A DNA stretch of 64,000 nucleotides from a virus (IMGVR_UViG_2617271113_000004:32001-96000); one strand, 5' to 3'; positions 13,887 to 54,771 are shown, counted from the stretch's first letter. The notes: generated by a model from the letters alone, not told the origin. A program made the numbers and translations.

Positions 13887-13927
13887 ATTGTAATCCTCCA
13901 ATCTATTTATATGTACATTGGAGGGAA

Positions 13928-32076: not shown

Positions 32077-35000
32077 CTATGCTTTTTTAGGAAATGATAA
32101 ATGTAGATGGTTATGGTGGTTTCCTGGTTCATAAATGAATTGTATCTTAGGATACTTTTTCTTCATTTGCTGAATGATGAACCAGTCCCCGAAAATGATG
32201 CCATCAAATCCTGCTTTCACACAGCTTTCCACCAATTTAATTGCATTGGTTTTATCTTTACCTGAAGGAAATCCTAATTTACCTCCTGATAATCTTCTCA
32301 TTGTGTTTGGTGTATCAATATCGACTCCATATCCTGTTCCATGCCAGTTGGGATCATTAGCACGGTAAGCACTTGTTACTACAATCTTCTCCCCTGTTTT
32401 AGACTTATAATCTTTGGCAACAGCATTCAGTAAGTCGTAAGTTCCTTTTCTCATAAGACTAGTTCCACCAACAATTGTAATATTAAAGGATCTACCAGTT
32501 TGATTCTTAGACTCAACAAGCTTTGATCTAGCTTGACTTGAACTTAAATGGTATTTGTCTTTACCTTTTGAACCAGTTACATCTGGAGCATCATCAGTAC
32601 CCCCTTTTGGATACTCATAATAACGCATAATGTGTTCAACATACTTCTTATCTCCATATCGGTTCCAACCTAATTCTGCTGCTTTCTTATCAGAGAATTT
32701 ATTTGTTAATTCCTGTGTCCACTTACCGCCATTATTATTAACATAGTCGATGAACCCACCGCCAAAATTATATGATTGTAACGCTAAAGCTACATCCCCA
32801 TTTGCCTTATTCATCATTTGCCCAAAGTATTTTACCCCTTGTTGTAAGCTTCTTTCTAACCCTATAGAATTTCGAGGTAAGCCTAGACTCTCAGAAGCTT
32901 GAAATACATCAGGGTATCGATTATAATTCCCTCCAGTTTCTTGCATACATTTGGCTTTTAGTATTTCTGCGTACTCTGGTTTTCCTTGTTTCTTGGCTTC
33001 TGCCTCTATTTTTGGTCCTAACGTTTTAAAGTGGGAAGATAGATTAACAGCTTTTCCATTTAAAGGGATACTAGAGGAACCATCCCATTGTTCACTATCA
33101 GAATTATCTCTTGTAAATAAATCAAAGAGATTAGAGAGAATGCTATCTGCTTCTTTCAACTTTTGCTCCAAGTGACTATAATCTGGCCTGTTGTTTTCTG
33201 CCCGTCGATTTTCTAAGAACTCCGCTCTCCCACTTATTTCTTCTTTTGCTGCTTCTACATCACGTTTGTAATACTCTTCAATTTTGCCATTGTCTTCATA
33301 GGTGTTAGGTCTATCAAAGATACTTTTTATTAATTCATCTGTTGTAAAAGTTTTCTCTGAAGTTGTAGGAGATGTAGCAAAAGATTGAATTTGACCGGGT
33401 AATTCTCCATTGACTGTTCGATCTTCCACACCTATAAGTCCAAGCAAAAAGTCTGGGATACCGTCAAATACCTTGTTTGCTTCTTTGGGCTCCCCTACTA
33501 CTGATCCTTTGTTTCCATTTATACCAGCAGTAAAATTAACTCCTTCTTTCTTTAACGGAACAATTAGAACAGCTTGTCGGTTCATTAGAAACCTCTCAGT
33601 TAATTCCCCAACTGTGGAAGATATCACACCAACTGCTGCTGTTTCTATAGCAAATGTAATAATCCCCGCTGGCCCTAATAAAGCATGTTTTCCTTTCCAT
33701 AATCCTTTTGCTACACCAGCTAGTTGTTTTCCACCTTTTAGAAGTCCAGAAGTACCTTTTGCCCCCTTCAACATTGCAGAACTAGCTTTTCCTTTGATAT
33801 TAGCCATCTTTCTAGAATCAAAATCTCTCAATAGTTTAGATTGACTAAACAAATTTCCCCCTTTATTGAACACTTTCTCTATATCTTTCTCATTTAAACC
33901 ATCTAATGATTTGGTCAATGAATTGAATAATCCGTTAGCTTTCCAACGTTTTAAGTCAGCTTGAATGTCAGCTTTCGGTAAATTAGATACAGACTTTTTA
34001 ACAGTTTCGGTTGCTTTTCCAGCATTCTTCTTATAATAATCTTCCGCTTTACTTACACCTTTAAAGCTTCTGACCTTTTGTTGCATCTTCCCTGCCCGCT
34101 TGGCTGTACTTGACCATAATGCATTTAGAATAGGTAAAGACCCTGTATATCCTCTACTTGCAAGAATTGCTCTAATATGCATTCTAGCCATTGCATATGC
34201 TCCAATGGTTGTCGCCCGCATGAGTAAATCAAAAATCGATTTATCCGCATTGAAGCAGACTGCATCAGGTTTAATCATACTGATAAAACCTACATCATGG
34301 TTCATAATATGAATGGATTCTTTAACATCTGCAGGACCGCTCATATTTGAATAATAATCTTGTATAATCATTGTGTCGTAAGGTTTTACAGTAGGATCGC
34401 CCATCACCGTGAGATATCCATCGTACATATCTTTTACATAATCTCGTAGACCAGCTGCAGTAATTTTTAATGCAACACCTTCATCGAAGAACCATTTAGC
34501 TGGTTTATTTAACGCATCTCCTATAAAAGGTATCTTGTCTATTGCCCAAACACCTTTAGCATTTAAAGTCGTGTCTATATTTACTGTCTTCTGCTTTTCT
34601 GGCCATATGTCTGTATCTACATAAACAGGAGAAGTTGTGGAAATTTTACCTTCATTCATGTATGTTCCAACTGCTACAGTATACATATTTTCTTCAGTTG
34701 CTTTTATCTGATTGTGAATAATCGAAGTATAGCTGTCGTAAATATGCATCTGTTTAAAGGATTTTTTTAAGGTTCCTTTAATCGATTCACCTTCAAGATC
34801 TATATCATAATCATGACTTATAGGGAAATATGGCTTTCCAAGAAATATTGTATTTCTAAGGCCGAATGGGTGAACTGCAGTAATCATGTCTTGACCAACA
34901 GCTGCTGTAATATTAAGTACATCCCATACTGTTTTATCGAATAAGTTAATGTTTATATTTACTTCATCTGAATCACCCATACCAAGCCCATCTTGAATTT

Positions 35001-38000
35001 TTCTATACCATTTATCTTGCTCAGCATTTAATAATCCTGTTGTTTGATAAACATTCATATTAATTTCTGCTGTTTCCCTGCCTTCCATAACCCCTAGGCT
35101 AAATAAGTCTTGAAAATCTTGAACCCCTTGAGGTAAACCAGTTTCACCAAAATGCATAATTCCTAATGCATGATCTTGATATTCTCTATTGCTCAAAGAT
35201 GCGGATATATTTGACCAGAAACCTTTCGAATCTGTAAGTAACTCATCTACAATTTCAGTAGGTTCTTTTTTAGAACTCAAAAATCCACTTGTATCATCTT
35301 CAGGATCTATATCCATCATTGCATTTAATTTATTCGTTAATTCGATTCCGTCATCTTGAGCAATCATTGTCATAGTTGCACCGTTATTTTGAAGACTTGT
35401 AATGGTTCCGTTCATGATTGTAGGTAAATTTGCAGCGTTTGAACCATACCCCATGCGCATATGAACTCTTACACCAGTTCTTAAATAAATACTTTTATAA
35501 TAATTTGGATCTCTGTGTCTACTGCGTTCCGTTTCCTTAGCAACTGCCCCAGGCATCATAGCTGCCAAGAATAAGTCTCCAAAGCTAGAGTGTGTAATGT
35601 CTTGCGCTTTCTCGTGATCGTCTAATGATCCAAACACGTTGCTTAATTCACACACTAAGGTGCTAGAAGCTTGTTTTCTACTGTTATTGTAGGTAATATC
35701 AGTAACCGCTCTATAATGAAAATACTGATCTGACATTTTAGCAGTACCTATAAACTGACCTTCATCTATAAATGTCATGAAAAATGTTGGGAAAGCACGT
35801 ACTAATCTACCCCTTCGATCATGCTTTAACATATCCGTCATCATACTTGCTTCAGATATTTTACTTCCGTTATCCGCATAGGATTCCTCATCAGATCTAG
35901 ATAACTGATCAATAACTGTTTTATCATAATCATCTACGATTACAGCTTTATAATCTTTAATAGGTAATTTATCATACTTTGATTGAATAGTTTCGTAATC
36001 CCATGATTCCGTGTTATCCAAAGTGTTTATCATGTTATTAATTTGATTTACTAGACGCTTATTTGGAGCTTTATTATTTTTTAACAAAGCAGTTAGTTCC
36101 CGTTTAAAGTCTAGGTAAAGTAACACCGTACAAATAAACTGTACTTTCTCTGCGTCTTCAGCTGATGAAGGAGACAAATCAAATAGATCGTATACACGGT
36201 CAATGTTGTATTCCCCATCGTTCATAATCGCCTCTGATGATCCCCAGTAGTAAGAGAAATAACGCATCCCTAAATCTACGTTGTACTCTATACTGTTGCG
36301 TATGTGTTTCTTTTGATCTGACTCCCCATATTTACCCCTAACTCTCATTACTCCTATATACTTAGGGTTGGATTGATATTTATAATTCAGGTTTTCATCT
36401 TGCATAATAACCTGTCCTTTACTTCCTACTTTGACACCATCTAGTTCTTGATTTAAACCGGCATTATAAAAATGTCTCATATTTGGATCAAACGATTGAA
36501 CAAATGCTGTAGGATACTTTCCCTTTATGCCATACACAGAAGCAGACTTTCTGATCAACGCTTCCATGTTATCCTTGGTTAAATTATCGTTATCAACTTC
36601 TTTAGAAATATCTGCACTTGGTGATATATTAGGCATCTTTTCTTCAGAAAGACTCTTTGTTTCATCCCTCTTTTGAGTAGCAACTTCGTCTAAGGAATAA
36701 CCACTATCATCTAAAGTAGCAGTTCCTCCAGTAGCATCGTATAAATCAATCTGACCTGCGCCTTCTAAAACAGATCTATTTAATATCTGTGCAAAGTCTC
36801 TTTCGGTATCATAGTTTATAAAGAAGTCAGGGTCTACAAAGAGTCCATCATTTGTGTTAATTACACTAAATCCAGCTTGCTGCACTTCATCATATGTGGG
36901 TAATTCTAAATCTGGATATAATTCCGCTGCTTTGAAAGTTTCAAGAACCCATGCATTATAAATTGCTTGATCATTAGCATCATTACTCACCCCTACTGCA
37001 TTTTTAATCTTCTTAAAACCACTAGTAATATTTTTGATAAATGGTGGAATGCCATTCACTAAATCAATATCCCAGTTTAAATCTAATGTCATTGCATTTA
37101 TTTCATGCATTTTCTTTTCTGCTCGATTGTATGCCATTAATGTAAGATTAACATCATATACACCAGGCATCCCATCAACAGTATCTACAGTCATATCATC
37201 AATAACTACATTTGTGACTCCATATAACTTTGCTATTTGATGATTGAATTGCAGAAACCCATTAGCAACTTCTTTATGATATTCACGAGTTAGATACGAT
37301 GTCCGACGAACTAAGTTCTCTAAACTAGCTATAGCTTCCATATCTGTGCACTGGAAGCGTGCAACCATTACAGTATCTTGTGAACCTAAGTATTGATGAG
37401 TTGGGGACTGATGCATCTGTAATTGATTTGATGTAATCGAATTTTCGAAACTAATGCTGAAGTCTTCCAGATGCATGTTACCTAAAGACCATGATTCATA
37501 ATGTAAATCATACTCATACATTGCTTTGCTATATAAATCATCATACGCCTCATTGAACTCTTCTTCCTTAGCATTATCACCAAATTTGACTCCGCCATCT
37601 TTACTTACTTTTACTTTCAGCCAATCATCAAAACTTAAGTCATTCTTATCGCTAGTCCATTCTTTTATAAGTTCTTTCTTTTGTTTATTCCACTCTCGAA
37701 TTGCCTGAAGATCGTCTTCTGCTGCAATTTTAAATATATAATCATTTGTTAATTCATCTGTTAACGGTTCAAAATAAGTTAAAACACGTTCTGCATCTGC
37801 ACCTTCACCTTTAGTCATTGATTTATATAAGGCAGACGCAACAGGGTCTTTAACTGTTGTTTTATTTAAATGCCTTTCATAATACCACCTGAACATTGGC
37901 CAATGAAACATTTCATCAAAACTTCTTTCACTCGTTCCATATATATAAGTAGCAGGTTCAAAAGCATAACATTGTATAATAGCTTGTAATGTATTAGGAA

Positions 38001-38370
38001 AACCTGGTGTTGTTTGAACAGTTACATTTTGAATTGTTATAGCTTCTATTTGATGAGCTTCGTTTAAATACGTGTTCTCAATTGGCAAGAATGGACACTT
38101 CTTACTTTGAGCTAAAATCGGTCTCAATTCAAAATTGATGGAATCTTCATTGGGAAAGAAAAGAGTTAGTGTAATTATTCGATCAAAGTATCCAGACTCC
38201 TTAGGAAGGCTATTTCTACCTCTCATCACAGATACTTTCTGATGTTTCATTTGTCTGTGTACGCTTATACTGGTTGGAGGTGTTAAAAACTGCGTATCTC
38301 CAATTCGCATAAAATGATCACCGAGATGCCCATAACGGACGTCCCGATCATCAAATGCGGTTATTGCCAT
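32077..38370 (-). CDS. Baseplate hub / tail-associated lysin with lysozyme-like and M15-type peptidase domains
   Basis: MQETGG..DVFQASES..QGVKYF..ALQSYNFGGGF..YGDKKYV (CwlT-type lysozyme-like); VTSAYR..HGTGYGVDI..HLHLS (M15 Zn peptidase); hub-like RTGVRVHMRMGYGSN..NGTIT. Confidence 0.8.
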   Translation of the reverse strand: MAITAFDDRDVRYGHLGDHFMRIGDTQFLTPPTSISVHRQMKHQKVSVMRGRNSLPKESGYFDRIITLTLFFPNEDSINFELRPILAQSKKCPFLPIENTYLNEAHQIEAITIQNVTVQTTPGFPNTLQAIIQCYAFEPATYIYGTSERSFDEMFHWPMFRWYYERHLNKTTVKDPVASALYKSMTKGEGADAERVLTYFEPLTDELTNDYIFKIAAEDDLQAIREWNKQKKELIKEWTSDKNDLSFDDWLKVKVSKDGGVKFGDNAKEEEFNEAYDDLYSKAMYEYDLHYESWSLGNMHLEDFSISFENSITSNQLQMHQSPTHQYLGSQDTVMVARFQCTDMEAIASLENLVRRTSYLTREYHKEVANGFLQFNHQIAKLYGVTNVVIDDMTVDTVDGMPGVYDVNLTLMAYNRAEKKMHEINAMTLDLNWDIDLVNGIPPFIKNITSGFKKIKNAVGVSNDANDQAIYNAWVLETFKAAELYPDLELPTYDEVQQAGFSVINTNDGLFVDPDFFINYDTERDFAQILNRSVLEGAGQIDLYDATGGTATLDDSGYSLDEVATQKRDETKSLSEEKMPNISPSADISKEVDNDNLTKDNMEALIRKSASVYGIKGKYPTAFVQSFDPNMRHFYNAGLNQELDGVKVGSKGQVIMQDENLNYKYQSNPKYIGVMRVRGKYGESDQKKHIRNSIEYNVDLGMRYFSYYWGSSEAIMNDGEYNIDRVYDLFDLSPSSAEDAEKVQFICTVLLYLDFKRELTALLKNNKAPNKRLVNQINNMINTLDNTESWDYETIQSKYDKLPIKDYKAVIVDDYDKTVIDQLSRSDEESYADNGSKISEASMMTDMLKHDRRGRLVRAFPTFFMTFIDEGQFIGTAKMSDQYFHYRAVTDITYNNSRKQASSTLVCELSNVFGSLDDHEKAQDITHSSFGDLFLAAMMPGAVAKETERSRHRDPNYYKSIYLRTGVRVHMRMGYGSNAANLPTIMNGTITSLQNNGATMTMIAQDDGIELTNKLNAMMDIDPEDDTSGFLSSKKEPTEIVDELLTDSKGFWSNISASLSNREYQDHALGIMHFGETGLPQGVQDFQDLFSLGVMEGRETAEINMNVYQTTGLLNAEQDKWYRKIQDGLGMGDSDEVNININLFDKTVWDVLNITAAVGQDMITAVHPFGLRNTIFLGKPYFPISHDYDIDLEGESIKGTLKKSFKQMHIYDSYTSIIHNQIKATEENMYTVAVGTYMNEGKISTTSPVYVDTDIWPEKQKTVNIDTTLNAKGVWAIDKIPFIGDALNKPAKWFFDEGVALKITAAGLRDYVKDMYDGYLTVMGDPTVKPYDTMIIQDYYSNMSGPADVKESIHIMNHDVGFISMIKPDAVCFNADKSIFDLLMRATTIGAYAMARMHIRAILASRGYTGSLPILNALWSSTAKRAGKMQQKVRSFKGVSKAEDYYKKNAGKATETVKKSVSNLPKADIQADLKRWKANGLFNSLTKSLDGLNEKDIEKVFNKGGNLFSQSKLLRDFDSRKMANIKGKASSAMLKGAKGTSGLLKGGKQLAGVAKGLWKGKHALLGPAGIITFAIETAAVGVISSTVGELTERFLMNRQAVLIVPLKKEGVNFTAGINGNKGSVVGEPKEANKVFDGIPDFLLGLIGVEDRTVNGELPGQIQSFATSPTTSEKTFTTDELIKSIFDRPNTYEDNGKIEEYYKRDVEAAKEEISGRAEFLENRRAENNRPDYSHLEQKLKEADSILSNLFDLFTRDNSDSEQWDGSSSIPLNGKAVNLSSHFKTLGPKIEAEAKKQGKPEYAEILKAKCMQETGGNYNRYPDVFQASESLGLPRNSIGLERSLQQGVKYFGQMMNKANGDVALALQSYNFGGGFIDYVNNNGGKWTQELTNKFSDKKAAELGWNRYGDKKYVEHIMRYYEYPKGGTDDAPDVTGSKGKDKYHLSSSQARSKLVESKNQTGRSFNITIVGGTSLMRKGTYDLLNAVAKDYKSKTGEKIVVTSAYRANDPNWHGTGYGVDIDTPNTMRRLSGGKLGFPSGKDKTNAIKLVESCVKAGFDGIIFGDWFIIQQMKKKYPKIQFIYEPGNHHNHLHLSFPKKA

Positions 38371-38382
38371 AAACATAACCTC

Positions 38383-41300
38383 CTATATACTTTCTTCTAC
38401 TTTATCTCGGTACCAAATTCTATTAAGTTGGTTTGTATTATCTGAGTAATTTATAGATATACGAGACTGCGATGGGCTCATATTAGAGTTTGTAATACCT
38501 TCATTTACAAGATGGGAAAGCTGATCTTGAGTAACAGAATTTCCTTTTGCTTGAATTTGTATGTCAGCATTTTGCGTCCCTTGAAAGGCATTACTTTCCA
38601 TATTTAATGCTGGCTGTGGTTGATTTATTTCATAATGGCCATCAGTTTCAGTCGGATCATTTATCGGTTCACTGTGTCTAAGAATATTGTATCCTCCTAG
38701 TGCTCCAAGTGCAAGACCTGATCCAATAACTCCCCACCTTAATTTCTTATTTTCACTCATTGCTTCAAAGAATTCTTGAACTTTCCTCCCAATACTTTCA
38801 GATACATTCCCAGTTAGATCGTTAGCATATTCTCCTGTTGCACCCGCTAAAGTCGTAGAACGTGGTTCTCTTCTTTTTGCTTCCATTGATTCGTAAGGAT
38901 TTACTCTTGAATGGACATTCCCTTCCAAATCTATATATTCTTTTGAAGCATCTACGCCTAACATCTGATGGATCATATTTAAATACGTATTCCCCATTGT
39001 ACGCTGCTCATTTGGTGCAGAACCATTAATAATATCTGTAATGTTTTTCAGGCCTATTTCTGGATCTAAACCACTACTAGTTCCAAATTTATATGATTTA
39101 TTATACAATCCATTCTCCATATTGCCTTTAACTTTATCTATTGCAGAGAATGCTTTTTCCATCATTTCTGTATCAAAATCGTCAGCAAAATATCTTTGCT
39201 GGATTTCCCTTGTCTTGGACCAATTGCCTCGATAAATAGAATTAACCAATTCGATGGCAGGTGCCCTTCCTTCTTCTACAGTTAAACCGTGTTTAGATGA
39301 TATCGGTTTTTGCTCTAAATCTTGACCAAAATCCAAGACAGCTCGTTGTTCTGATGATCCATGATCAAGATATTCAAAGGCCATTTGTCGTAAAGTAAGA
39401 TTTAAATTAGAAGCCTGACCAATTACTCGTTTACCGATCTTCGATGCAAGTTCTTCCTGAGTATTAGGTTGAAAAGGAGCAAAGCGATCTTGCCCTTTCA
39501 ATATATAATTAGGATCATAACTCCTAGCTGATCTAGAATCTTTATTTATCTGCTTTTCATAAGCTTTTTGTCTTCTTGCTTCTTGCTCATTGTATCTGGA
39601 TTCCCATTCTTTTTGAACCTCTTTGTCCTTCATAACTACAATATTATCATAGTCACCATCTGAATCAGCTTTCATTAAATCAGACATCCATGAAGTTGTT
39701 CGGAATTCTCCTGATTTAACATCATCACTCATTCTTAATTTTGCTATCTGCATGGCATTGCTGTGGAATGTTGGATAACGTGTGTTCATTACGAATAAGT
39801 CACCATCAATCTCCCCGGAAGCACGTTTAGCCAGATCCTCATAAACACCCATTGCTTTTGCATCGTCGGGAGATATAAATGTAAACTCCCCATCTAAATC
39901 CATCGAAACTTTAGGATCCATCAATTTAAAAAGTCCATTTCCAGAAGTATTCATCCCAGCACGTAATACTTCTTTTCCTGTTTGTCCTTTAGAAGAAGTA
40001 ACATCTTTTGTAGCTTGTCTAAAATAATCATCTACCGATGCTTGAAGGCTATCCATAGCTGTGTTTCTTGCTTCTATACTTCCAGCCCGCTGTACATCGT
40101 CTGCTCGCTTATAAATATCCCCAATCTTCTTCTGTAAATCACGTAAGAAGACTTTTCCATTCGTTTCTTCTCTATTTGTAAAAGGTATAAATATATTATC
40201 AATAGCTACTCGTTCACTTGTATTTCCATTCAAATTCAAGGCTACTTTTCTACTATTCCCATTTGGAGCTTCTACACTTGGCAACTTCAACCAATACCCA
40301 TGTGCATTATCTCCACCTGTTAATGCATGTATATAATCTTTGTCAAACACCGTTTTCTTGTAGGTGTTCATATCAGCATCAATACTAGGTAAAGAACGAA
40401 AGTTTTCAACTTCTAACTCGGGTGCATTGTTAAGTAATTGGTTCTGATTGTCCACCGCCCCAGTTATTGAAGCAATGATATTTTTAGTTTCTTGTAGTCT
40501 AGTTTTATTTGAAGCTTGTGACATCATCGTTTCATACACTTTATTATACGTATTATCTAATTTAAGGTCTTTTAGTACTCCCATTTCACGATGACCCCAA
40601 TTTACTCCACCATGTTCGAAACCAATGTCTGTTCTAGCATATCTTTTTATCACATTGCCATTTTTATCATGCTCTAACCGTAATACTTTTCGGCCCTGCT
40701 CATCTGTCATCGTACTATAATTACTTACTTTACTTGCACGTGCTTCTAATATTGCTGTGTCAAATTCCAATTCCGTTTTATCATTAATTCCTAATGAGTT
40801 GAAGATTCGATTGAAACGTTGAGCAGGTATCGGTTTATTTCCTTCTTGGATAAACATTTGGGTTTCATCGTCCCATTTTAAGTTAACTTTGGAAGCCATT
40901 CGAATAGTTCTATCAAATTGTTTTTGTAGTTCCATTCTTTCCAATGCTCGACTGCTTGCCTTATCATTAGGGTGTGTTTCTGTATTGGCTTTAATAAGCT
41001 CGCTACTTATTTCTTGAGCGTGGTTAGCTAATAACTTAGCTTTACCAGATAGATACATACCAAAGTCTCTGTGTTTTTGTATATTAGCATTTAAAACCAT
41101 ACTTACAGAATCATCTCCAGTAATGGCTGACATCAAGTCCCTGCTAATTGAAACATCAGTTGCTTTTTCACCCTCTACGATATATTTAAATACATCCTCT
41201 TCCCAAGACACACCGATCCTTCCATTCTGCTGTATGACAGTAGCATCGTGTTTACCGTTGTACGTTATGGGTCTTTCATTTCCTTCTACTATTTCAGTTC

Positions 41301-44300
41301 CTAATGTCTGACCAGGTTTAACAGTTGCGCCTGGCTGCATATTTCGAAACAAGTTCACATTATCCGTTTCAGATAAGACTTTTTGTTCAGTAGCTCTCAT
41401 TTTAGACTGAATATCACTAGCTACAAGCCCTTGCTGTTCGTATATCGTTGGGATATTTGTGTGATTCCAAGACCCATCTTCATTGATAACACCTTCTCTT
41501 TTTAATAGATCAGGATTTGTTTCCTTTATAGATTCAAGGCGTTCAAGCAGTTGCTGATCATTCATAAAAGCTGTTTTCAGATTCACTCCCATATGATTTC
41601 CACCAGCTTGTTTTCTCCACTCATTACTCCATTCTCGCTGTGCTTCTGTAGTTACAAGGTCATCAAAACGAAGAAAAGCATTTGTATCCCTTGTAGCTTC
41701 TTGTATATCACTTGCGACTTTTGGAGATATGAGATGTGCATTCATAAATTGAACGGAATTATCTCTTCCCTGGAATGTGAAATGCCCATAAGGAAGATAA
41801 TCTCTAACATCTAATTTATTAAAGCTGCCTAATGCTACATTATCAGCTTTGTTTGTTCCTGCGTATAAATCTAAATTCTTCTGACTCAGCCATTCACCTG
41901 ATGCCAGCAACATTTCATAAGATTTCCGAGGCTTAATATTATCAAAAGTTACGTTTTTCTTTAAATAACCATTTTCAAATGCGTTGGAGAATATGTCTTC
42001 CTGTCTTAGCTTTCCTGTTTGATACCAGTCCTGAATCATAGCATTTTCTATATCTACATTCCCTTGTTTGAAGAAATCAGATTGATTATTGTTATAATTG
42101 AAAGTATCATTATTAGTCAAGTTCCTCTGTATACCAGAAAGTTGATTTACACTCTCATTCAGAACTCTTCTTGAACGAGTATTTGCAAGTTCAGCGTTTC
42201 CGTCTAGCATTGGATTCATAATATAGTTTATTTTATCAGTATAGTTATCTGCTAATACTTCAGCCGAAGATTTAATACCGATATTTCCATTATTGTACGT
42301 CGCAAAGCTTCGAGCATTCAATCGACGATTTCCTATCGTGTGTATCCCGTTTTGACCTATCAAAGGCATATTAATTGTCACAGCATTTGGATGATTCATT
42401 CCTTGCGAAAGATGATCAATGACACTTGTACTTTGACTTGGGTTATATATAGAAATTCTTGCGTTCTTTGTATGTTCATCCATTGAAACAGCAAAATGGT
42501 ATTTGTTATAAGCATCATTTTCAATTAAATTTGATACAACTTTTTCTAACGCATTTCGGTTATTTGGCTGTAGACCAGACAAATGTGTTTCATCTAACCT
42601 TGATAATGCCTTTTCTACTGTTGAACTAAAAGTAACCCGTGTACCAGGAGCATCATTTGGATTAAACCTAGTAGCATTTACCTCTTTTACAGTATTAACT
42701 GCTTCACGAAACATTAATTCATTTGTTTCATTATTCAATTGTTGAACAGCCGAGTTATAACCCAATGATGTTTGTTTAACCGATTGATCAAACTTAATAT
42801 TACTATGCTGAAGAATATCTGATATCTGTACAATAGCGTTATGAACCGTGGAACTTTCATTGTTTATGTCTGTAAGATTTCCAGCAATATTATTATTTAT
42901 TACCTTATTGTTATTTAAGTTCTTTATAAATCGGTTCATTCGCTCACGATATCGGTCTTCTTTCAAATCTTTATCTAAGTCTGATCCAGAGATGTCTCGT
43001 GAATAAACATAGTTTTTAATACTTTGCTCTACTGATTCAGTATTTGTCATATTTAAAGTGTGACTTGTATTAGAGAAATAGTCCGTAAAGGAAATCCTTT
43101 TTCTCTCAAAATCTTGAAGACTGATATCTTCTTGCTGCATTGGAAATGCTTCATTTACTTTATTCGAATATAATCTCCATGCCATATCACGTTGAGCTGG
43201 ATCTTTTAAATTCTCACCAATATATTTTAATGCAGTTTCATATACTGGTCTTTCTGATATTAGTCTCATTCCCATACGGAAGAATTCCTCTTGTTCGACT
43301 GGATTATGAACCCAACTCTTTGAGTTTGAATCCCAAAGACTATTAAATTTTCCTTCCATTTGATTCATTAACTCTTCATGAGTTATTCGGTTACGAATAA
43401 GTTCCTGATAATTAGAACCAGAAATGTGTTTATGTTTACCTAATAATCTCTTTTCAAGAATTTCTGCGTTACCATAAAGTCTCCTTGCCGCTTCGTAGCC
43501 ACCTGTTTTTCCGGAACCAGCCTTTTCCAAACTAAACATGCGCTCATATCTTCTTCTAGCACTATCTGTTAGCTTAGCATCATTAATTTCCCTTCTTTGG
43601 TTACTCGTTAAACCATCCCAGTTATAAAAACGATTTTGGACAAAGCCGGCCAGCTCATCAAATGCTTCATTTCCCTCACGCACAATAAAGCTGTGCATAT
43701 CTTTTTCTTTATTATATAGTCTTAGACCATATCTCTTCATTTCATTATCAGATAGGTCCATAAGACCTTCTACTTCATAAAAGCTTTTTGCATTAATAAT
43801 GGTTGTATTAAATGAGTCATTTATTGGATTATAAGATCCTGTTTCAGGGTCAAATTTAGCAGAAAATGATAGATCCCCATCTCTTTTAGCTCTAACTCCT
43901 CCAACAGCAAATAATGTTTGCCCTGTTTCCAATGACTGATTTGACCAGCTGAAACCAGGTTCATGATAATTAAATCCCGCTTGAATATTTGTTTTCGATG
44001 CATTTATTTTATTCTTGATTGTACCAATACTATGATTAATTACTCCTCCTAATCCTTCTGTTCCAATATCATGGGAAGCACTATGAGCAGATTCTAGATC
44101 AAATCCTAAGGTGCTTCTAAACTCTTGAAGTTTTGTCATACCAGTTTTTAGTGGATTACTAGAAAAATCACGACCTAATGATTTATGAAGATCAATAGGA
44201 TTGCTATAAGCAGTTTGAACAACTTGATAATAGTCAAGGTGTTTTTTGGGTTGATTAACAGGGCTATTCCCTTTTATTTGACCCCAGGACTGTAAGACAG

Positions 44301-48100: not shown

Positions 48101-50997
48101 TTAGGAGCAAATTCGATAATACGATCTCCTCGATAAGCTGTTCGAGAACCAATTGCCCACCATCGACCTTTACGGATTTCTTCTGTACCGTGAAGAAGAT
48201 CATCATAGGTTTCTTCTACGGTCATAGTGTCTTCTTCGCTTAATGGTGCAGCACCAGTCAATCCATTTAACAGATGGCCAGGTCCAACTTCCCCTATTCC
48301 TGGTATATGAATTTCCGGCATAGCTTCAAAATGCTCTATTCCTGGCTTTAACATTCTTTCTCTACGCAACTCATCAGTGGATCCAAAAGTCTCTCGTAAT
48401 TCAGCATCTTCGATTCGTTGATTAGCTTTATAATTTTCCCAACGTTCTTCGATACCAGCCCCAGTGTGTTTATCTAATAAATAATCTGTGTACTGATACC
48501 CTTCCGCTGCTCCAACAATTGGAAGCCCTCTTTTCAGCAACAGAGAACTCCAGATTTGTAACGGGCTTCCCATAGAAGCATCTGACAAACCTAAACCTAA
48601 ACTACCTAAAGCTTCTTGAATACGATATACAGGATAATACGACCCAAATATGGATAGAGTAGTTACATCTTCTGGATTTCTTCTTCCTGTTCGAAAGCTA
48701 CTTTGTTTTAATAAGTCAGCAATTCCTTCACCGCTACCTAGGTTTTTAAATATATTTGCTTTGTTTACTGCAATATATTCATTTGCAATTTGATTTGTAT
48801 GTTGAGCATTTGTATTCTTATGAAGAAGTGGATTTATTTTCTTCGCCATTTGACTTAAACTACTTTGAAAGCTTTTACTTGCATCGTCATTTTCAAGCAA
48901 AAGTCCATTAACATCCTCAAAGATTCGTTCATAATTCCCATTAACATGTCTACCAGCTTGCTCAAACATTTGCTGGTTAATTAGCCATTCGGCTTCTTGT
49001 AGATCCTTTTTTAAAATTGCTCCAGATTTTTGACTATCTTTTAACTTTTTCCTTAATTGATGTTGAACTTCTTTTGACCTCAATAGTCCATTTGGTTTCA
49101 CTTCGGTTATTTGCCTGATTAATTCTTTACCAACTTCTTGGTTTATTTCATCCATTCCTGTTTTAATTTGTATCGTACCACCCATAATCATACTTGTTTG
49201 ACCATGAGGAATGGTTTTGCCAAGTACTTCATCTGGGTTTCTTTCAAAGTTCCGATACAATTGATTAAATGCAAAACTTGTATCAATATTTTCGTCTTGG
49301 CCTAAATGTTTAAATAGACGAATCATGTCATCGTCTCTGGAGAAATTAATATTCATTTCATTAATTTTATTAAGCAGAGAAGTAGGTAGATCACTTTTAA
49401 TCTCATTAAAAACTCTTGATGATAAGCCTTTTGAATTTTGATCAAGAAAACGTTGCATGTCATGATATTGACTTGGCGAATCAATACCATGTTGCAGTGC
49501 TTTGTTTATTTTTCTTCGATCCCAATCCTTATCCCAAAATTTTGAGAATACACTAAAACCTTCAACAGCTATTGGATCTTTTTCCTGACCACCGATATCT
49601 AATAATTTAGCTAACTTGCTATTGGATGCATCCATACCCATAATAGATCTAGATCCATCTGTCATGGTTCCACTCATTTGTCTGGAAATTGTTGATATTG
49701 TTCCAAATCGGGCTGATGTCAAATACATATCTCTTTCAGGATTTAGAACTTCAAGTGGTTTATTACTCGTAATAGCCTGGTGATCAAATAAACGCATAAA
49801 TTTTCCGTTTGAAAAAATAACATCTTCAGTTAGTGGCTCATTTGCTTTCAAACCTAGATGACCATTTAGCATAGGTTGAACGGTACCACGTTTAAAAATC
49901 CTAAAGCTAGATTGCTCTCTGGCTGATCGAATATTTATGATATCCCTTAAGTGCATTAATCCACCTGGAAGAGTGTGAGACCACCATTCCATTGCGTCCC
50001 GTTTCACTTGATCTAACGGCTTATAATCTGTTAATCCAGTTGCTTTTCCATCTTTCAAATTGACATATAAATTATTATCGAATATAGCGTCCTTGAAATC
50101 CTTATTGTATCCTAATACACTATCAATTTGTGATTTTACATCCTCTGGCAAGATTGCTTTTTGACTCTTGTGTAGATCTAATACATCCTGGATGGTTGCC
50201 TGTTTAAGGTTAGATCCAATAATCGTTTGTTTTATTGTACCATTAGCTTTAGTAATACTTTCTATGTCTTTGGAAGTAGCAGCTCTTAACTTTTCTTGTA
50301 TTCCCTCTATCCATTCTTTTCCCTGTTGAGACGTTTTAGAGAAATCTTTACTTTTGTTTTTTAACCGAATATCGTTAACTAAATCAATAACACCTTTATC
50401 TTGAATTCCTTCTTGGTTTAATAAATGTCGGATATCAGAGTTACTTCCTTTTCGGAGAACACCATTATATCCACGGCCAATGCCTCTTTCAATTTGATCT
50501 GCTGTATCTTTCGTTATATTATTTGATTTTCGTACCTCTTGCATTACCGATTGAAGTCGAAGTCCTTCACTCATATATTCAGGTACATCATTTTCAATCA
50601 ATTGTTGTCGTTGTCTAAGATAACGAGTCATATCAAATTCTCTACTAGACAGTAGGCTCTTCTCTTGCTTGTCTTTGAGAGACAAAAGATCCTCTTTTTT
50701 GTTTTGATATGTATCTCTTGACTTCTTTAAACGATCTAAGCTAAAGTTTTTCGCAAACGACCCTTCTTCATTCATCGTCTCTCTAAAGGCTTGTCGGGAA
50801 GCGGATACTTCTCTATTTAAGAATCTAGAAAGTTGGCGCATTGCTCCTGATCTATGCCCAATCGCTAATGCACCAACTGCTGCAACAGCACCTAAACCAG
50901 CCTTTTGATATAAAGGCATCTCTTCATTTTCAGAAGTCAAATAACGGCGGTATTCATGATTAGAATTTTGGTAATCTTCTACTCTTAACTCTTCCAT
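45178..50997 (-). CDS. Tape-measure/ejection-like giant protein with hydrophobic helices and a degenerate thermonuclease-like domain
   Basis: 1939 aa, first gene after the tail chaperones; Gly/Ala-rich hydrophobic segments; VTVTRFLDDYTF..IRLAGVDS..DTYGTMRAVV..LNKQIIDAG. Confidence 0.6.
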   Translation of the reverse strand: MEELRVEDYQNSNHEYRRYLTSENEEMPLYQKAGLGAVAAVGALAIGHRSGAMRQLSRFLNREVSASRQAFRETMNEEGSFAKNFSLDRLKKSRDTYQNKKEDLLSLKDKQEKSLLSSREFDMTRYLRQRQQLIENDVPEYMSEGLRLQSVMQEVRKSNNITKDTADQIERGIGRGYNGVLRKGSNSDIRHLLNQEGIQDKGVIDLVNDIRLKNKSKDFSKTSQQGKEWIEGIQEKLRAATSKDIESITKANGTIKQTIIGSNLKQATIQDVLDLHKSQKAILPEDVKSQIDSVLGYNKDFKDAIFDNNLYVNLKDGKATGLTDYKPLDQVKRDAMEWWSHTLPGGLMHLRDIINIRSAREQSSFRIFKRGTVQPMLNGHLGLKANEPLTEDVIFSNGKFMRLFDHQAITSNKPLEVLNPERDMYLTSARFGTISTISRQMSGTMTDGSRSIMGMDASNSKLAKLLDIGGQEKDPIAVEGFSVFSKFWDKDWDRRKINKALQHGIDSPSQYHDMQRFLDQNSKGLSSRVFNEIKSDLPTSLLNKINEMNINFSRDDDMIRLFKHLGQDENIDTSFAFNQLYRNFERNPDEVLGKTIPHGQTSMIMGGTIQIKTGMDEINQEVGKELIRQITEVKPNGLLRSKEVQHQLRKKLKDSQKSGAILKKDLQEAEWLINQQMFEQAGRHVNGNYERIFEDVNGLLLENDDASKSFQSSLSQMAKKINPLLHKNTNAQHTNQIANEYIAVNKANIFKNLGSGEGIADLLKQSSFRTGRRNPEDVTTLSIFGSYYPVYRIQEALGSLGLGLSDASMGSPLQIWSSLLLKRGLPIVGAAEGYQYTDYLLDKHTGAGIEERWENYKANQRIEDAELRETFGSTDELRRERMLKPGIEHFEAMPEIHIPGIGEVGPGHLLNGLTGAAPLSEEDTMTVEETYDDLLHGTEEIRKGRWWAIGSRTAYRGDRIIEFAPNSYRKAHSDWEYSEVTSSAEEKYAHSLFPTFENPLGALSFLIGTRDPYWWEKKHYYDRPYMLTGDLFNSNTPFLGDIGNMTIGQLIKPTREMHKEYWGDPEVVQEEFDLLGERPVEPVTTRISPSGRIEYNVDASPEDYGARSSYYIARRRYDEDSDPTGDMIIGDPTTGKTIYLPRRLNDKYVDLNSAFIAAEQNDQRSVETEPRGMFAPSYEYQQQVDKNKINELQDPRSFEWRGQELASNWLEPHGVYNWIFMDEILGRDPYVGKTVVAKSDEAYNASDAFWESELGSLGGSLSEIGRRFIRRDSGQLDKYNPIPNTMPDWLPGGNYFINFQTGDPYSLIPHGEYRLPGEAYEKLNRLHPDETGTYGAFDKFKILADVAPWSDEYKFWKDYVTEYVEDDQLRKQAAQIKRQVSRRKQKYEFQEYLYKDAELEKEKVTVTRFLDDYTFLTEEYGDQPIRLAGVDSRANAEGVLEEYIDVGDRITIGIDADENKRISSDTYGTMRAVVFQGINSLNKQIIDAGQMKELESDFSSPGVWARFSPEEIAKGSRWESIAHFDSALNTKFLQVRTALEEYERDQIYGQDWSTWENFGITDYGIPAIHKMAGKDNPLLAGLSGAMFGGVVGRIFLGGGNRTKAGAIIGGITGLTANAFAKLYQYRNDERWIPERRRTEQDINEYFDILKYMKYAGLYEKAKEELDHLGYDADEFLRNVEEKEQRTKEARRELEEQKKQLYIEQPRNWEEKKKKINIELKKIEEQWDEIQLPTPVAQALYYKEQRDTTLYGIDPHEDRMKVMQSLPYKDKWFFNEFVDANAADRKKILELVPENQRRIYKTIWGMEAEEKKPLSYYANKYAIPDADWEGWSPEYSLDDIKVKTVMEEGIDLTDFNYWNDDIEAAALTPDLPNDYNEPEFLGYQSVEKNLRDVLQGQGLHNVQVIVKPSNGNETHTRINYQQDRSKEIEDEFRYNMDAYL

Positions 50998-52298: not shown

Positions 52299-53075
52299 TT
52301 AAAGTGTATTGGAAGACCCATTTAAGTCCTGTGCCATAAAAGAATAAACTTCTTGAATAGGAGCACCTTGATCTGCTGTAGCTACTCTCTTTTGCACTCC
52401 AGTTATCTGAACCCCATTGACAGTTTCAACTGTTAAATTAGGCTTTATTGATTGATCTTTAGAAGAATAAAATTGATTATTTCTATAAGACTCTTCAACT
52501 GCTCCATAGTTAATTCTTAGATTAAATCCATAGGGATTATTTCGTTGAAAATATGGCGCATAAGCATCTGTCAATAGGTGGTCTTCACCTTCTGTTTCTT
52601 CTCCCCAAATTGCACGTTCATATTCTTCTGCAATTTGCTCAAAGCTTTCTTTTCCATATAGACGAAGAATCTCATCTAGTTTATATTTTTCATAATGTTC
52701 TATATTAATTCCTTTAGAATTTGACACAGAAGTTAATGTATGTTGAATAGCTTCTGCATGCTGTAATACTTGCTGTAAATAGCTAACAGATTTAAAGTTC
52801 ATGCTAAAAGCTCCCATAATCTGTCTTCTCCCTCTTACCACTTCATCGTAAGTGTAGCTATTATATCCATAGATAGGCAAAATTTCTTCTTTTAAAGAGA
52901 ACTCTAGGCTTGTTATTTCGTCTACCCATATATCTCCGAAATAAATGTGCATATCTGCTCCGGAAAAATATTCTTGACTATATAGTTGATATTCAACTCT
53001 AGTGTCCTTTCTGTTGTAATTATCACGCTGTGGCATTAAAGTTCTTTTACTCAACCCGCTTCCTTGAATAATCAT
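52299..53075 (-). CDS. Tail tube-like paralog 3
   Basis: FSGADM..EITSLEFSLKEEILPIYGY..RGRRQIMGAF, shared with the two upstream genes. Confidence 0.6.
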   Translation of the reverse strand: MIIQGSGLSKRTLMPQRDNYNRKDTRVEYQLYSQEYFSGADMHIYFGDIWVDEITSLEFSLKEEILPIYGYNSYTYDEVVRGRRQIMGAFSMNFKSVSYLQQVLQHAEAIQHTLTSVSNSKGINIEHYEKYKLDEILRLYGKESFEQIAEEYERAIWGEETEGEDHLLTDAYAPYFQRNNPYGFNLRINYGAVEESYRNNQFYSSKDQSIKPNLTVETVNGVQITGVQKRVATADQGAPIQEVYSFMAQDLNGSSNTL

Positions 53076-53088
53076 AATTTAGACTCCT

Positions 53089-53955
53089 CTATATTTGTTT
53101 TGTCATTGGATCAATATCCAATGCATAGAATTCATATACATTTTGTGTCATCATATCATTTATACTCATAACCATTCCTTCGGTATATGTACTAACACCA
53201 TAAATAGTTAGTGTAGATCTACTTCCGAATTCATTTGCCATGGTTAAATTAATATCGAATAATGGCATTTCATCCATAAGCATTTTGTGTCCTTGTTCTT
53301 TTAGCTCCTCTATACATCGATAAACTGCACTTTGATCAAATACAACAAATGTTAGGATTCCAGTAATTGTACGCATTCCTCTTGTGTATCCTTTAGAAGT
53401 GACTCTACCTAAACCTCTAACTGGTACCTTTTCTCTTAAAATAGAATATGAAACATTAGACAACTCTCCAAATACAACTGGACTTCTTCCTGGTATTGTT
53501 ATGCTAGCTACCATGTCAGAACCAGAGTAACTATTGTTTGAATAATTATCTTGAAATTGGCTTCTTTGATTATTTGAATTAGATGGAAACTTGCTTTCTA
53601 CCGTTCCCTTATTATTATTTTGATGAAGCGGACTATCATCAATTATAATTCCATCTTTATCTAATTCATTTTTTAAATTGTCTAATTGTCTACCATACTC
53701 AAAAGACTCATTATCTGTCATTTCATTTCCATAGTTATTCTGAAGGTAATTTAATACTTTATAAGACCTTGCTTTTCCCATTGTATAACTTATAGAAGCA
53801 AATACTTCTGATATCGTCCACTTCCAACCTTGTTTCTTCATCTCTCGAAGGATGTAGTTTAATCTAAGTTCTAGTTGATGTTTAGCTATACCACTTTCTA
53901 TATATATGCTATTTTCTTTTATCAGTTTTAACATAGCTTGGATAAGTAGCTCCAT
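53089..53955 (-). CDS. Tail tube-like paralog 2 with an unrelated N-terminal extension
   Basis: YSGSDM..GELSNVSYSILREKVP..RGMRTITGILTF..PLFDINLTMANEFG. Confidence 0.6.
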   Translation of the reverse strand: MELLIQAMLKLIKENSIYIESGIAKHQLELRLNYILREMKKQGWKWTISEVFASISYTMGKARSYKVLNYLQNNYGNEMTDNESFEYGRQLDNLKNELDKDGIIIDDSPLHQNNNKGTVESKFPSNSNNQRSQFQDNYSNNSYSGSDMVASITIPGRSPVVFGELSNVSYSILREKVPVRGLGRVTSKGYTRGMRTITGILTFVVFDQSAVYRCIEELKEQGHKMLMDEMPLFDINLTMANEFGSRSTLTIYGVSTYTEGMVMSINDMMTQNVYEFYALDIDPMTKQI

Positions 53956-53971
53956 TTGCAATACCCCTTTT

Positions 53972-54018: not shown

Positions 54019-54732
54019 TTATGCTAAAAGATCTCCACCAGATGTTCGAGCACTTGAGCGCCCTTCATATCTTAAGTTATCTTTTCTTTTAATTCCTTTA
54101 ATCTTCCGAGCAACAAAGGAATAAGCTTTTGCTGTTACGACATCATCAATGGAGAACCCAGACCCTTCATTTAATAACTGAATCCCATGAATTTCCATTC
54201 CTGATCTATTACCAAATTCGTTTGCCATTGTAATTGTAATATTGAAAGGCATTAACTGATCTGCATATTCAGGTTCATAAAATCCTGTTAAATTATCTGG
54301 ATTAAAATCTCCAGCTGAACCATAACCTAAGTTTGTCATTTGTTCATCCCAAGTTGTAATTCCATAGGTATCTGCACCATCAGCACTTCTTGATTTCAAG
54401 CCACTTAGAATTTGATCTTGAATACTGCCAGCATTTGCACGAAATGTTTGGTACTTCATAAGTGCTGGTGCATTTCCACCATAGTCTTTTCGCATTTCTT
54501 CTAATAAGGCATCTCGGTCAAATGTTACAAATACTAATGATCCAGAAATTCCTCGTTTACCTCTCGAGAAAGATCGAGGGTCTGCGCTACTCATTGTATA
54601 TATTGGAGCAACTTCTCTAGAAATACTGTAATTAAGTGCTTGAAGTTCTCCAATTACACGTCCATTGAAAGTAGCTGCAATATCTGCTCCACTGTAGGAA
54701 CTAAATGTTTTAGTATATTCTTCAGTATTCAT
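54019..54732 (-). CDS. Major tail tube protein (probable)
   Basis: Immediately after the sheath gene and followed by a terminator; YSGADI..GELQALNYSISRE..RGKRGISGSLVF; GAGGAG RBS favours the ATG at 54732. Confidence 0.7.
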   Translation of the reverse strand: MNTEEYTKTFSSYSGADIAATFNGRVIGELQALNYSISREVAPIYTMSSADPRSFSRGKRGISGSLVFVTFDRDALLEEMRKDYGGNAPALMKYQTFRANAGSIQDQILSGLKSRSADGADTYGITTWDEQMTNLGYGSAGDFNPDNLTGFYEPEYADQLMPFNITITMANEFGNRSGMEIHGIQLLNEGSGFSIDDVVTAKAYSFVARKIKGIKRKDNLRYEGRSSARTSGGDLLA

Positions 54733-54771
54733 TTCCACTTCACTCCTCAATTGGATTAAAAATCATATAAA

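Follow-up and report, generated by a model that had tools for sequence, protein, structure and literature searches.

What does a giant gene encode when it lies in the tail operon of a provirus and no protein-family model recognizes its product? The gene in question lies in a 64,000-nucleotide stretch (hereafter, the window) that comprises bases 32001-96000 of the IMG/VR provirus record IMGVR_UViG_2617271113_000004 (191,052 bp, a Bacillus-type prophage; estimated completeness 97%; guanine-plus-cytosine content 30-37%); positions are counted from the first letter of the window. An earlier note, made from the sequence alone, had proposed that this tail module hides a divergent RNA polymerase (RNAP) with beta- and beta-prime-like parts in one chain. 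We find it probable that the gene encodes a single-chain, cell-type, two-barrel RNAP situated behind a DEDDh 3'-5' exonuclease, and that the protein is carried in the virion and transcribes early genes.

38383..45162, minus strand: putative exonuclease-RNAP fusion gene, 2,259 amino acids, a single open reading frame

The gene belongs to the late tail operon, and the operon junctions on both sides of it are tight. It begins with GTG 15 nucleotides past the stop codon of an upstream giant gene, with an AGGAAGTGA-type ribosome site, and its TAG stop codon overlaps the ribosome site of a downstream giant gene.

Database searches with the 2,259-amino-acid protein

Routine annotation was expected by the earlier note to miss the protein, and it did. 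Pfam returned nothing above threshold for the whole protein (two nuclease-type matches were sub-threshold), PHROGs gave 0 matches, and a tblastn search of 50,697 phage records with the polymerase part found only two spurious tail-fibre matches (E 0.5). No Rpb2-type Pfam family was listed at E <= 1. The YonO/RdRP family PF05183 likewise had no match at E <= 1, either in the whole protein or in residues 1101-2100; the positive controls were a YonO-like protein of 1,168 amino acids from the same genome (34.1 bits) and phage 0305phi8-36 (69.1 bits). Homologs of the 2,259-amino-acid protein are unnamed or carry labels such as 'hypothetical protein', and no description of the family was found in the main text of open-access PubMed Central or bioRxiv papers.

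The C-terminal 1,000 residues are predicted to fold as RNAP beta followed by beta-prime

We modeled residues 1101-2100 with AlphaFold2, using a 45-sequence alignment, and obtained a mean predicted local distance difference test score (pLDDT) of 89.5 and a predicted template modeling score of 0.87. The model was compared with 48,161 representative chains by VIA-align, and the best 50 matches were listed. These divided it cleanly, with model residues 1-453 resembling second-largest subunits and 470-993 resembling largest subunits, so that the predicted structure shows the fold of RNAP beta and then of beta-prime.

40504..41862, minus strand: beta (Rpb2)-like module with the first barrel, residues 1101-1553
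38893..40455, minus strand: beta-prime (Rpb1)-like module, residues 1570-2090, with the second barrel at about residues 1737-1857

Among the matches listed, the beta-like module was matched by nine second-largest-subunit chains with Z scores of 13.2-15.6. The highest was Pol I A135 (4c2m_B; Z 15.6, root-mean-square deviation (rmsd) 4.4, 281 residues aligned), followed by the phiKZ non-virion RNAP (7ogp_C, residues 12-652; Z 15.4, rmsd 5.6, 346 aligned), the second-largest subunits of Pol IV (NRPD2), African swine fever virus (ASFV) and the plastid-encoded polymerase (Z 15.1 each), Xanthomonas beta (6j9e_C; Z 14.9, rmsd 4.8, 320 aligned), AR9 (7s00_C, residues 7-603; Z 14.8, rmsd 6.5, 347 aligned), and the vaccinia (Z 13.4) and Pol III (Z 13.2) subunits. 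The beta-prime-like module matched largest subunits with Z scores of 9.8-10.7, again among the matches listed: human Pol I A190 (7ob9_A; Z 10.7, rmsd 5.0, 401 aligned), Drosophila Rpb1 (Z 10.6), Sulfolobus RpoA' (Z 10.3), S. pombe A190 (Z 9.8) and M. tuberculosis beta-prime (Z 9.8, 411 aligned). Single-chain two-barrel enzymes aligned over both halves at lower Z: maize RDR2 (9.8), QDE-1 (9.3), P74-26 gp62 (8.9), P23-45 gp96 (7.0 and 6.7) and crAss phi14:2 gp66 (6.6).

Foldseek against the PDB gave at least 500 matches at E <= 0.001, the best being 4xln_D (E 1.7e-7), and the top rows among the matches listed were all bacterial RNAP beta-prime chains. Model residues ~637-757, which hold RYPTFH and DSDGD, also matched isolated double-psi beta-barrels (Z 7-8.7), such as the N-domains of Cdc48/VAT; the designed barrel 7dww_A superposed on model residues 639-744 over 84 of its 86 residues (Z 7.8, rmsd 2.1). 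As modeled, the protein would contain two double-psi beta-barrels within one catalytic core. The polymerase-like part spans ~38893-41862 on the minus strand, possibly reaching further upstream, so the range 39200-41900 given by the earlier note takes in most of the core and falls short of the gene as a whole.

Catalytic motifs and their conservation

Three motifs carry catalytic or candidate catalytic residues of a two-barrel polymerase, and the motif order along the chain is beta, then beta-prime.

41164..41187, minus strand: KYIVEGEK, candidate active-site lysine pair K1326 and K1333 (conserved in 44/45 and 45/45 sequences)
39763..39780, minus strand: RYPTFH, counterpart of beta-prime NRAPTLH with its universal Arg and Pro, R1795 and P1797
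39652..39666, minus strand: DSDGD, putative Mg-binding aspartate triad D1833, D1835 and D1837 (45/45)

The DxDxD triad of the two-barrel superfamily is present inside the segment that matches isolated barrels, and the universal Arg and Pro lie upstream of it. All of the strings quoted in the earlier note (VKPGQTLG, FKYIVEGEKA, VSMVLNANIQKHRDFG, GGVNWGHREMGVL, LQASVDDYF, SSKGQTGKEVL, VMNTRYPTFH, KADSDGD and EQKPISSKH) occur in the order it gave in the one 2,259-amino-acid chain. Recomputed coordinates agree with it within a codon for K1326-K1333, for RYPTFH and for GGVNWGHREMGVL (40573-40611), and the aspartates are numbered as it had them; KADSDGD occupies 39652-39672 rather than the 39652-39669 that it gave. 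The assignments of EQKPISSKH as trigger loop and of VKPGQTLG as flap hybrid motif are guesses.

The family profile aligned NVRYPTFH...KADSDGD with NRAPTLH...NADFDGD of E. coli beta-prime 397-486, with a weak score. Against PDB sequences it reached the plant Pol V largest subunit at E 0.0014 and phiKZ055, Rpb1, ASFV RPB1 and archaeal Rpo1N at E values up to 0.65; in all of these largest-subunit matches, profile positions ~1778-1859 fell on the NADFDGD zone of the chains. The profile also paired GVxWGHREM with GQRFGEME of E. coli beta 1267-1310, at a score that is not significant.

Conservation was assessed in the core alignment of 45 sequences, which are 19-59% identical to the query over 1000 query columns. 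Invariance is confined to 15 of the 1000 columns, and seven of the 15 are occupied by R1795, P1797, D1833, D1835, G1836, D1837 and K1333. K1363 and E1526 are likewise kept in 45/45, K1326, R1525 and K1957 in 44/45, and H1958 in 41/45, while position 1242 is acidic throughout (E in 44, D in 1). Because the catalytic residues are among so few invariant columns, the motif reading is more than chance.

In the available text of Ruprich-Robert and Thuriaux (PMC2919709), eight residues are listed as invariant in all two-barrel polymerases, among them Rpb1 R446 and P448 and Rpb2 K979, K987 and D837. Five of the eight, as given there, are on the beta-prime side, and all five are kept in 45/45 sequences (R1795, P1797, D1833, D1835, D1837); K1326, K1333 and E1242 are candidates for the three on the beta side. 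The divergent single-chain beta/beta-prime RNAP that the earlier note proposed is thus supported by the confident model, by the subunit matches to both halves and by the invariant catalytic residues. It had held that the proposal would fail if the model lacked a pair of double-psi beta-barrels or if DxDGD were not conserved in homologs; the model has beta- and beta-prime-type halves with barrel matches, and every one of the 45 homologs keeps DxDGD.

A family of giant proteins in Bacillus phages and their relatives

A word-indexed search with residues 1150-2050 found 21 proteins of 2,233-2,505 amino acids (E <= 1e-89), and an exhaustive phmmer search of the library with residues 1000-2100 gave 41 cluster representatives with E values of 0.001 or lower; for 32 of these the value was 1e-30 or lower. 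Most of the 41 are 2,100-2,730 amino acids long and a few are fragments; all belong to the same family, and none is a named RNAP. The homologs are collinear with the 2,259-amino-acid query from end to end.

Three isolated Bacillus phages carry a homolog:

vB_BauM_KLEB27-3 (host Bacillus australimaris) gp034: 2,434 amino acids, labeled 'structural protein', with NRYPT and ADYDGD
vB_BceM_WH1 gp095: 2,515 amino acids, labeled 'virion structural protein', with NRYPT and ADHDGD
Edson homolog: labeled 'hypothetical protein'

The polymerase-region profile matched gp034 at E 4e-36 and gp095 at E 5e-30, and the full-length profile gave E 6e-39. Other homologs were found in Oceanobacillus profundus (56% identity, on a 194,705-bp contig), in Alicyclobacillus shizuokensis, on a 145-kb Bacillus thuringiensis plasmid and on nine IMG/VR contigs of 78-216 kb.

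In a separate search of BFVD, which holds predicted viral structures, the polymerase model was matched best by two proteins that are unnamed or labeled 'minor tail' (E 1.3e-21, TM 0.56; E 5.3e-18, TM 0.50). The nearest entries were A0A7R7G2L5, A0A8S5SD80, A0A172Q021 and A0A075BUT7, the sources being an unnamed entry, a siphovirus from a metagenome, Acinetobacter phage vB_AbaM_ME3 and Microcystis phage MaMV-DC, the latter two being uncharacterized proteins; many giant-virus RNAP subunits followed the ME3 and MaMV-DC proteins in the list. From such modeled structures, similar hidden polymerases may occur well beyond Bacillales phages.

A predicted DEDDh exonuclease domain precedes the polymerase-like part

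The remainder of the protein comprises an N-terminal nuclease, a middle region and a short C-terminal part.

43996..44871, minus strand: predicted DEDDh (DnaQ-type) 3'-5' exonuclease domain, residues ~98-389, with catalytic D107, E109, D286, H360 and D365
41863..43995, minus strand: middle region, residues ~390-1100, alpha/beta and confidently folded in the model
38683..38742, minus strand: glycine-rich hydrophobic helix WGVIGSGLALGALGGYNIL, residues ~2141-2160, following the polymerase
38386..38580, minus strand: conserved C-terminal tail, residues ~2195-2259, ending ...INYSDNTNQLNRIWYRDKVEESI

Residues D107, E109, N281, F285, D286, H360 and D365 are invariant in 34/34 sequences and make up the DEDDh signature, with Exo I (DxE), Exo II (D) and Exo III (HxxxxD) placed on an RNase H-like fold; the predicted exonuclease thus shows its full catalytic set. 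In a model of residues 1-1100 (m42db30e73744; pLDDT 86.2), the domain matched E. coli exonuclease I at Z 15.3 (rmsd 3.0 over 192 aligned residues) and Pol III epsilon at Z 14.4 (rmsd 2.5 over 167). Further fold matches to residues ~98-389 were 3'hExo, TREX1, RNase T and the exonuclease domains of family A and B DNA polymerases, and its profile matched archaeal PolB exonuclease sequences (E 1.8e-6). Pfam gave only sub-threshold matches on this domain.

A proofreading-type exonuclease is typical of replicative DNA polymerases, and the likeness to Pol III epsilon and to family A and B domains raises the alternative that the protein is a two-barrel polymerase whose activity serves another purpose, be it RNA-dependent synthesis (as for QDE-1 and RDR2), priming, or DNA synthesis with the DEDDh domain as proofreader. 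Archaeal PolD, a two-barrel DNA polymerase, offers an analogy for the last of these. RDR2 and QDE-1 do align over the whole model, and neither template nor product can be read from sequence. However, the best matches were subunits of DNA-dependent RNAPs, with ~280-350 plus ~390-410 residues aligned as against 339-373 for RDR2 and QDE-1. The beta-prime alignments also extended far past the barrel (to residue 1271 of M. tuberculosis beta-prime), which fits the extra elements that the accessible part of PMC2919709 ties to DNA-templated transcription. No PolD chain was among the best 50 matches listed, which does not in itself exclude similarity, and the genome has its own replication genes elsewhere. 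We regard a job other than transcription as unlikely, and retain DNA-dependent RNA synthesis as the preferred function.

The middle region contains invariant P933 and G939 within PLIGQNGIHTIGN (42328-42366, minus strand), a string with a weak likeness to PLMTDNGTFVING, which is conserved near the N-terminus of bacterial beta. If this likeness is real, the polymerase core would start near residue 890. An hhalign comparison of the middle region with E. coli RpoB was not significant (E 0.16, probability 0.4%) and is a lead only; the protein atlas gave no usable match to residues 400-1100, and the fold-search list for the N-terminal model (residues 1-1100) was filled by exonucleases.

Only ~160 residues follow the polymerase part. 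In the glycine-rich helix, G2147, L2150, A2151, Y2158 and N2159 are nearly invariant; the helix may have a membrane role, although its Kyte-Doolittle mean falls below the 1.4 cut. The conserved tail of the 2,259-amino-acid protein ends ...LNRIWYRDKVEESI, and D2241, N2242, T2243, L2246, N2247, R2248, W2250, Y2251, R2252 and D2253 within it are invariant. By eye, the C-termini of this protein (...RISINYSDNTNQLNRIWYRDKV..., 38386-38580) and of the 1,939-amino-acid product of the upstream giant gene (...RINYQQDRSKEIEDEFRYNMDAYL, 45181-45300) are similar, and related endings were seen in 0305phi8-36 gp146 (weakly) and KLEB27-3 gp034. Going by these sequences, the shared C-terminal strings may represent an assembly or attachment module of giant proteins of the tail lumen.

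The gene occupies a tape-measure slot in a contractile-tail operon

The placement in a tail module reported by the earlier note holds on both sides of the gene. On the same strand upstream are a tail sheath gene (phrog_16991, E 6e-189), a sheath paralog, three tube-like paralogs, two small chaperone-size genes and then the first of the two flanking giants, and further baseplate hub and wedge proteins are encoded beyond the second giant downstream.

45178..50997, minus strand: upstream giant gene, 1,939 amino acids, with a hydrophobic segment at residue 1578
32077..38376, minus strand: downstream giant gene, 2,099 amino acids, baseplate hub with cell-wall-degrading domains

The 1,939-amino-acid protein has no Pfam or PHROG family. 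By blastp it is homologous to 0305phi8-36 gp145 (6e-110) and WH1 gp096 (1e-133), with a homolog also in KLEB27-3 (gp031+gp033), and it is a candidate tape measure or ejection protein. The 2,099-amino-acid hub matched Pfam Lysozyme_like (E 8.5e-32, residues 1787-1920), phrog_20474 (1303.7 bits) and, by blastp, gp147 (5e-60). A hydrophobic segment lies at about residue 1564 of the hub, and its C-terminus (...HGTGYGVDID...HHNHLH) looks by eye like that of an LAS/VanY-type metallopeptidase.

The gene order is the same in phage 0305phi8-36: sheath gp139, tube gp140-142, chaperonins gp143-144, gp145 (1,930 amino acids), gp146 (2,537 amino acids, 'hypothetical tape measure protein') and gp147, a hub with wall-degrading domains. 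The records of gp145, gp146 and gp147 carry the note 'identified as virion protein by mass spectrometry'. Local blastp found no link between gp146 and the 2,259-amino-acid protein, and gp146 has neither DxDGD nor RxPT. The family profile gave a single match in gp146, of profile positions 2074-2243 to gp146 2334-2517 (E 7.6e-4 in a two-sequence search), and we rejected gp146 as an ortholog save for the C-terminal ~170 residues. Because the flanking giants are conserved and gp146 lacks a polymerase, it follows that one slot holds either the exonuclease-polymerase protein or, alternatively, a plain protein of tape-measure type; from their sequences, these occupants appear to have in common at most a C-terminal attachment module.

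This setting bears on two further alternatives. One is that the protein is an active RNAP that is not injected, either a late product acting in the cell that makes it or a non-virion enzyme that merely shares the operon. Packaging is itself a deduction, the element is a provirus whose early genes the host polymerase could read, and 0305phi8-36 does without the protein. Nevertheless, the gene sits within a tightly coupled run of virion genes, its C-terminal tail recurs in gp146 (in the tape-measure slot) and in the neighboring giant, homologs are annotated as structural, and a late-only, unpackaged enzyme would have little left to transcribe. An enzyme that stays behind is therefore quite improbable in our view. 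The other alternative, a structural tail or tape-measure protein that contains an inactive polymerase relic, draws on the slot and on the structural labels of the relatives, yet a relic would not keep the catalytic residues of both enzymes invariant in 34-45 homologs down to 19% identity; we give it very little credence. An active enzyme delivered by the virion is the reading we carry forward.

Comparison with known single-chain and multisubunit polymerases

In the sections available of Chaban et al. 2024 (PMC10770324; PDB 8H2M/8H2N), P23-45 gp96 is a tape-measure-fused virion two-barrel RNAP, as the earlier note correctly stated; gp64 is a non-virion RNAP, and the two are said to be paralogs. 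Like gp96, the present protein would be a single-chain two-barrel enzyme that has DxDGD and lies concealed, at the tape-measure position, within a giant protein of the tail module, with sequence similarity to known RNAPs limited to the DxDxD region; like P23-45, the genome has a second, separate single-chain polymerase gene. The structural match to gp96 is moderate (Z 7.0, rmsd 4.9, 305 aligned), far under the multisubunit beta and beta-prime matches. In gp96 the polymerase is N-terminal and is followed by a ruler of ~3,800 residues, whereas here it is C-terminal, with an exonuclease ahead of it and no long ruler. The portion of PMC10770324 available makes no mention of an exonuclease. Unlike P23-45, the present phage has a contractile tail, and unlike gp96 and gp64, its two polymerases are not detectably related. 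A polymerase joined to a long tape-measure ruler, as in gp96, was not seen in either model, both of which show compact folded domains; the ruler of the tail is probably another protein.

The crAss phages are podovirus-like phages of Bacteroidota. Phage phi14:2, a crAss-like phage, has a virion RNAP, gp66, with two large virion neighbors, and gp66 is placed with the RNAi (RNA interference)-polymerase clade, according to the available parts of published work (bioRxiv 10.1101/2020.03.07.982082; PDB 6VR4). The virion-packaged gp66 (~2,180 amino acids) is a giant single-chain two-barrel RNAP amid large proteins, and our protein would likewise be a giant single-chain polymerase with large neighbors. 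One large neighbor of gp66 has a cell-wall or protease domain, and here three giant genes stand in a row, the last lysozyme-like. The match to gp66 is low (Z 6.6, rmsd 5.4, 418 aligned) and there is no sequence similarity; unlike gp66, the 2,259-amino-acid protein aligns best with multisubunit-type beta and beta-prime.

Multisubunit RNAPs, including the split phiKZ and AR9 enzymes (PDB 7OGP, 7S00), were the best matches for both halves and share the conserved order of beta and then beta-prime motifs; the beta-like module begins where the C-terminal beta fragment of phiKZ and AR9 begins (7ogp_C, 7s00_C). The differences are one chain instead of two to five, no Pfam Rpb1 or Rpb2 model reached, and a core of ~1,000-1,200 residues compared with ~2,750 for E. 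coli beta plus beta-prime.

Enzymes of the YonO (SPbeta) and 0305phi8-36 gp99 type are likewise single-chain two-barrel polymerases of Bacillus phages, but the 2,259-amino-acid protein has no PF05183 match and occurs independently of them. In the parts available of Hardies et al. 2007 (PMC2147016) and of the 2021 jumbo-phage survey by Iyer et al. (PMC7824862), 0305phi8-36 is credited only with a YonO-like enzyme, and the survey gives YonO-like enzymes only for the 0305phi8-36 phage group.

The second polymerase gene of the present genome lies past the end of the window.

Record 119870-123376 (window scale 87870-91376), plus strand: YonO-like single-chain polymerase, 1,168 amino acids

This gene is ~43 kb from the 2,259-amino-acid gene and on the other strand. 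Its product has GADVDGD at about residue 677 and matches the RdRP family PF05183 (E 1.7e-8, 34.1 bits, cutoff 23.8); tblastn against phage records gave a single match, in Bacillus phage BUCT082 (E 4e-6). With the 2,259-amino-acid family profile it scored E 0.074 among three targets, so that no relation is detectable, and the idea that the two polymerases are paralogs, as in P23-45, found no profile support. Of five related records searched, two had a PF05183 match (0305phi8-36 and the Oceanobacillus genome) and three had none (KLEB27-3, WH1 and the B. thuringiensis genome). On this count we rejected constant co-occurrence of the two polymerases, the records with PF05183 not being the same set as the carriers of the 2,259-amino-acid family: 0305phi8-36 has the YonO-type enzyme without a homolog of the 2,259-amino-acid protein, and WH1 and KLEB27-3 show the reverse. 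The pattern of occurrence therefore indicates that the two polymerases are independent modules.

The 10-mer GCCTRTCGGC occurs seven times, always on the plus strand and always downstream of the YonO-like gene, past the window end (record positions 123756, 124561, 130929, 131561, 148237, 153436 and 168973), compared with an expectation of ~0.07 copies from 200 mononucleotide shuffles. These copies may be signals for one of the phage polymerases.

Probable virion carriage and a proposed mechanism

With a tail-operon gene that joins an exonuclease to a one-chain RNAP core, the phage probably brings a transcription enzyme of its own into the host cell, by analogy with P23-45 gp96 (PMC10770324) and crAss gp66 (bioRxiv 10.1101/2020.03.07.982082), as far as the available text of each describes them.

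Several observations weigh against this reading. No search gave a significant sequence link between the 2,259-amino-acid protein and any RNAP: in Pfam, a scan of residues 1101-2100 alone placed RNA_pol_Rpb1_2 (PF00623) on residues 1785-1853 (E 0.0063) at 17.2 bits, below the curated gathering cutoff of 25.3 and thus short of the Pfam threshold; phmmer of the protein against all PDB sequences found 0; and hhalign of the family core with E. coli RpoB (E 0.31, GGQRFGEME region) is a lead only. K1326 and K1333 are seven residues apart, as against eight for Rpb2 K979 and K987; they would correspond to those lysines by position in the beta-like module, not by superposition, and E1242 is a candidate for the beta-side acidic residue. 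As to packaging, the mass-spectrometry evidence is for gp146, which has no polymerase, and so backs the slot and not the 2,259-amino-acid protein. The labels that call the homologs in WH1 and KLEB27-3 structural are database annotations whose basis is not visible; our literature search found no papers on either phage, and no activity or proteomic datum for any family member. A largely globular protein such as this one cannot act as a helical ruler itself. Lastly, a fixed relay from virion to non-virion polymerase, as in P23-45, cannot be general for the family.

We propose that assembly would place the protein inside the virion, either within the tail lumen or among the ejection proteins, where its conserved C-terminal tail and its glycine-rich hydrophobic helix would hold it until it leaves with the DNA. 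On the entering genome it would begin host-independent, rifampicin-insensitive transcription of early genes; in the present element the YonO-like polymerase gene, a separate gene on the opposite arm, may be one of them. The exonuclease would probably act in cis on a nucleic-acid 3' end, either trimming or proofreading transcripts in place of Gre/TFIIS-type factors or processing DNA ends.

A more specific version is tentative, and we hold it to be possible but rather doubtful: an undescribed lineage of single-chain, multisubunit-type RNAP would have replaced, as a cassette, the tape-measure-slot gene of 0305phi8-36-like Bacillales jumbo phages, to be delivered through a contractile tail with the DEDDh domain as a 3'-end editor in cis. 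Such an editor might proofread or rescue transcripts without Gre/TFIIS-type factors, or might resect the end of the entering DNA into a template for starting.

Single-chain virion two-barrel polymerases are already known; the present family is not significantly similar to them in sequence and differs in its fused exonuclease domain, its contractile-tail operon and its multisubunit-like predicted fold. Few phage groups are known to carry cell-type RNAPs in the virion (jumbo phages of the phiKZ/AR9 type, the crAss-like phages and Thermus phage P23-45), and large contractile-tailed phages and prophages of Bacillus, Oceanobacillus and Alicyclobacillus would form a fourth. Their one-chain beta/beta-prime core of ~1,000-1,200 residues is nearer to the cellular enzyme than is the YonO/RNAi clade, and because it combines small size with this likeness it could serve as a compact model for a minimal cell-type transcription core. 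No counterpart of the RNAP-exonuclease fusion was described in the literature searched; if true, it would be the first polymerase-exonuclease fusion among two-barrel RNAPs. The exchange of a polymerase and a plain tape-measure protein in one slot bears on how enzymes come to tail delivery, and the homologs in KLEB27-3, WH1 and Edson make direct testing possible.

Other genes of the tail region

Three paralogs after the sheath genes (52299-53075, 53089-53961 and 54019-54750, minus strand) match phrog_9206, 'major head protein'. Their position and the way the syntenic genes of KLEB27-3 and 0305phi8-36 are annotated make them tail tube proteins, and the PHROG label looks misleading for them. Downstream of the baseplate genes lie three giant genes (8175-13901, 13928-20104 and 121-4527, minus strand; 1,908, 2,058 and 1,468 amino acids), which probably encode fibre or decoration proteins. 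Among the genes of the tail-fibre region, a 385-amino-acid protein (22546-23703, minus strand) matches phrog_3677, 'protease' (E 4e-81), and by eye has a subtilisin-like GTSMSAPHVSG motif.

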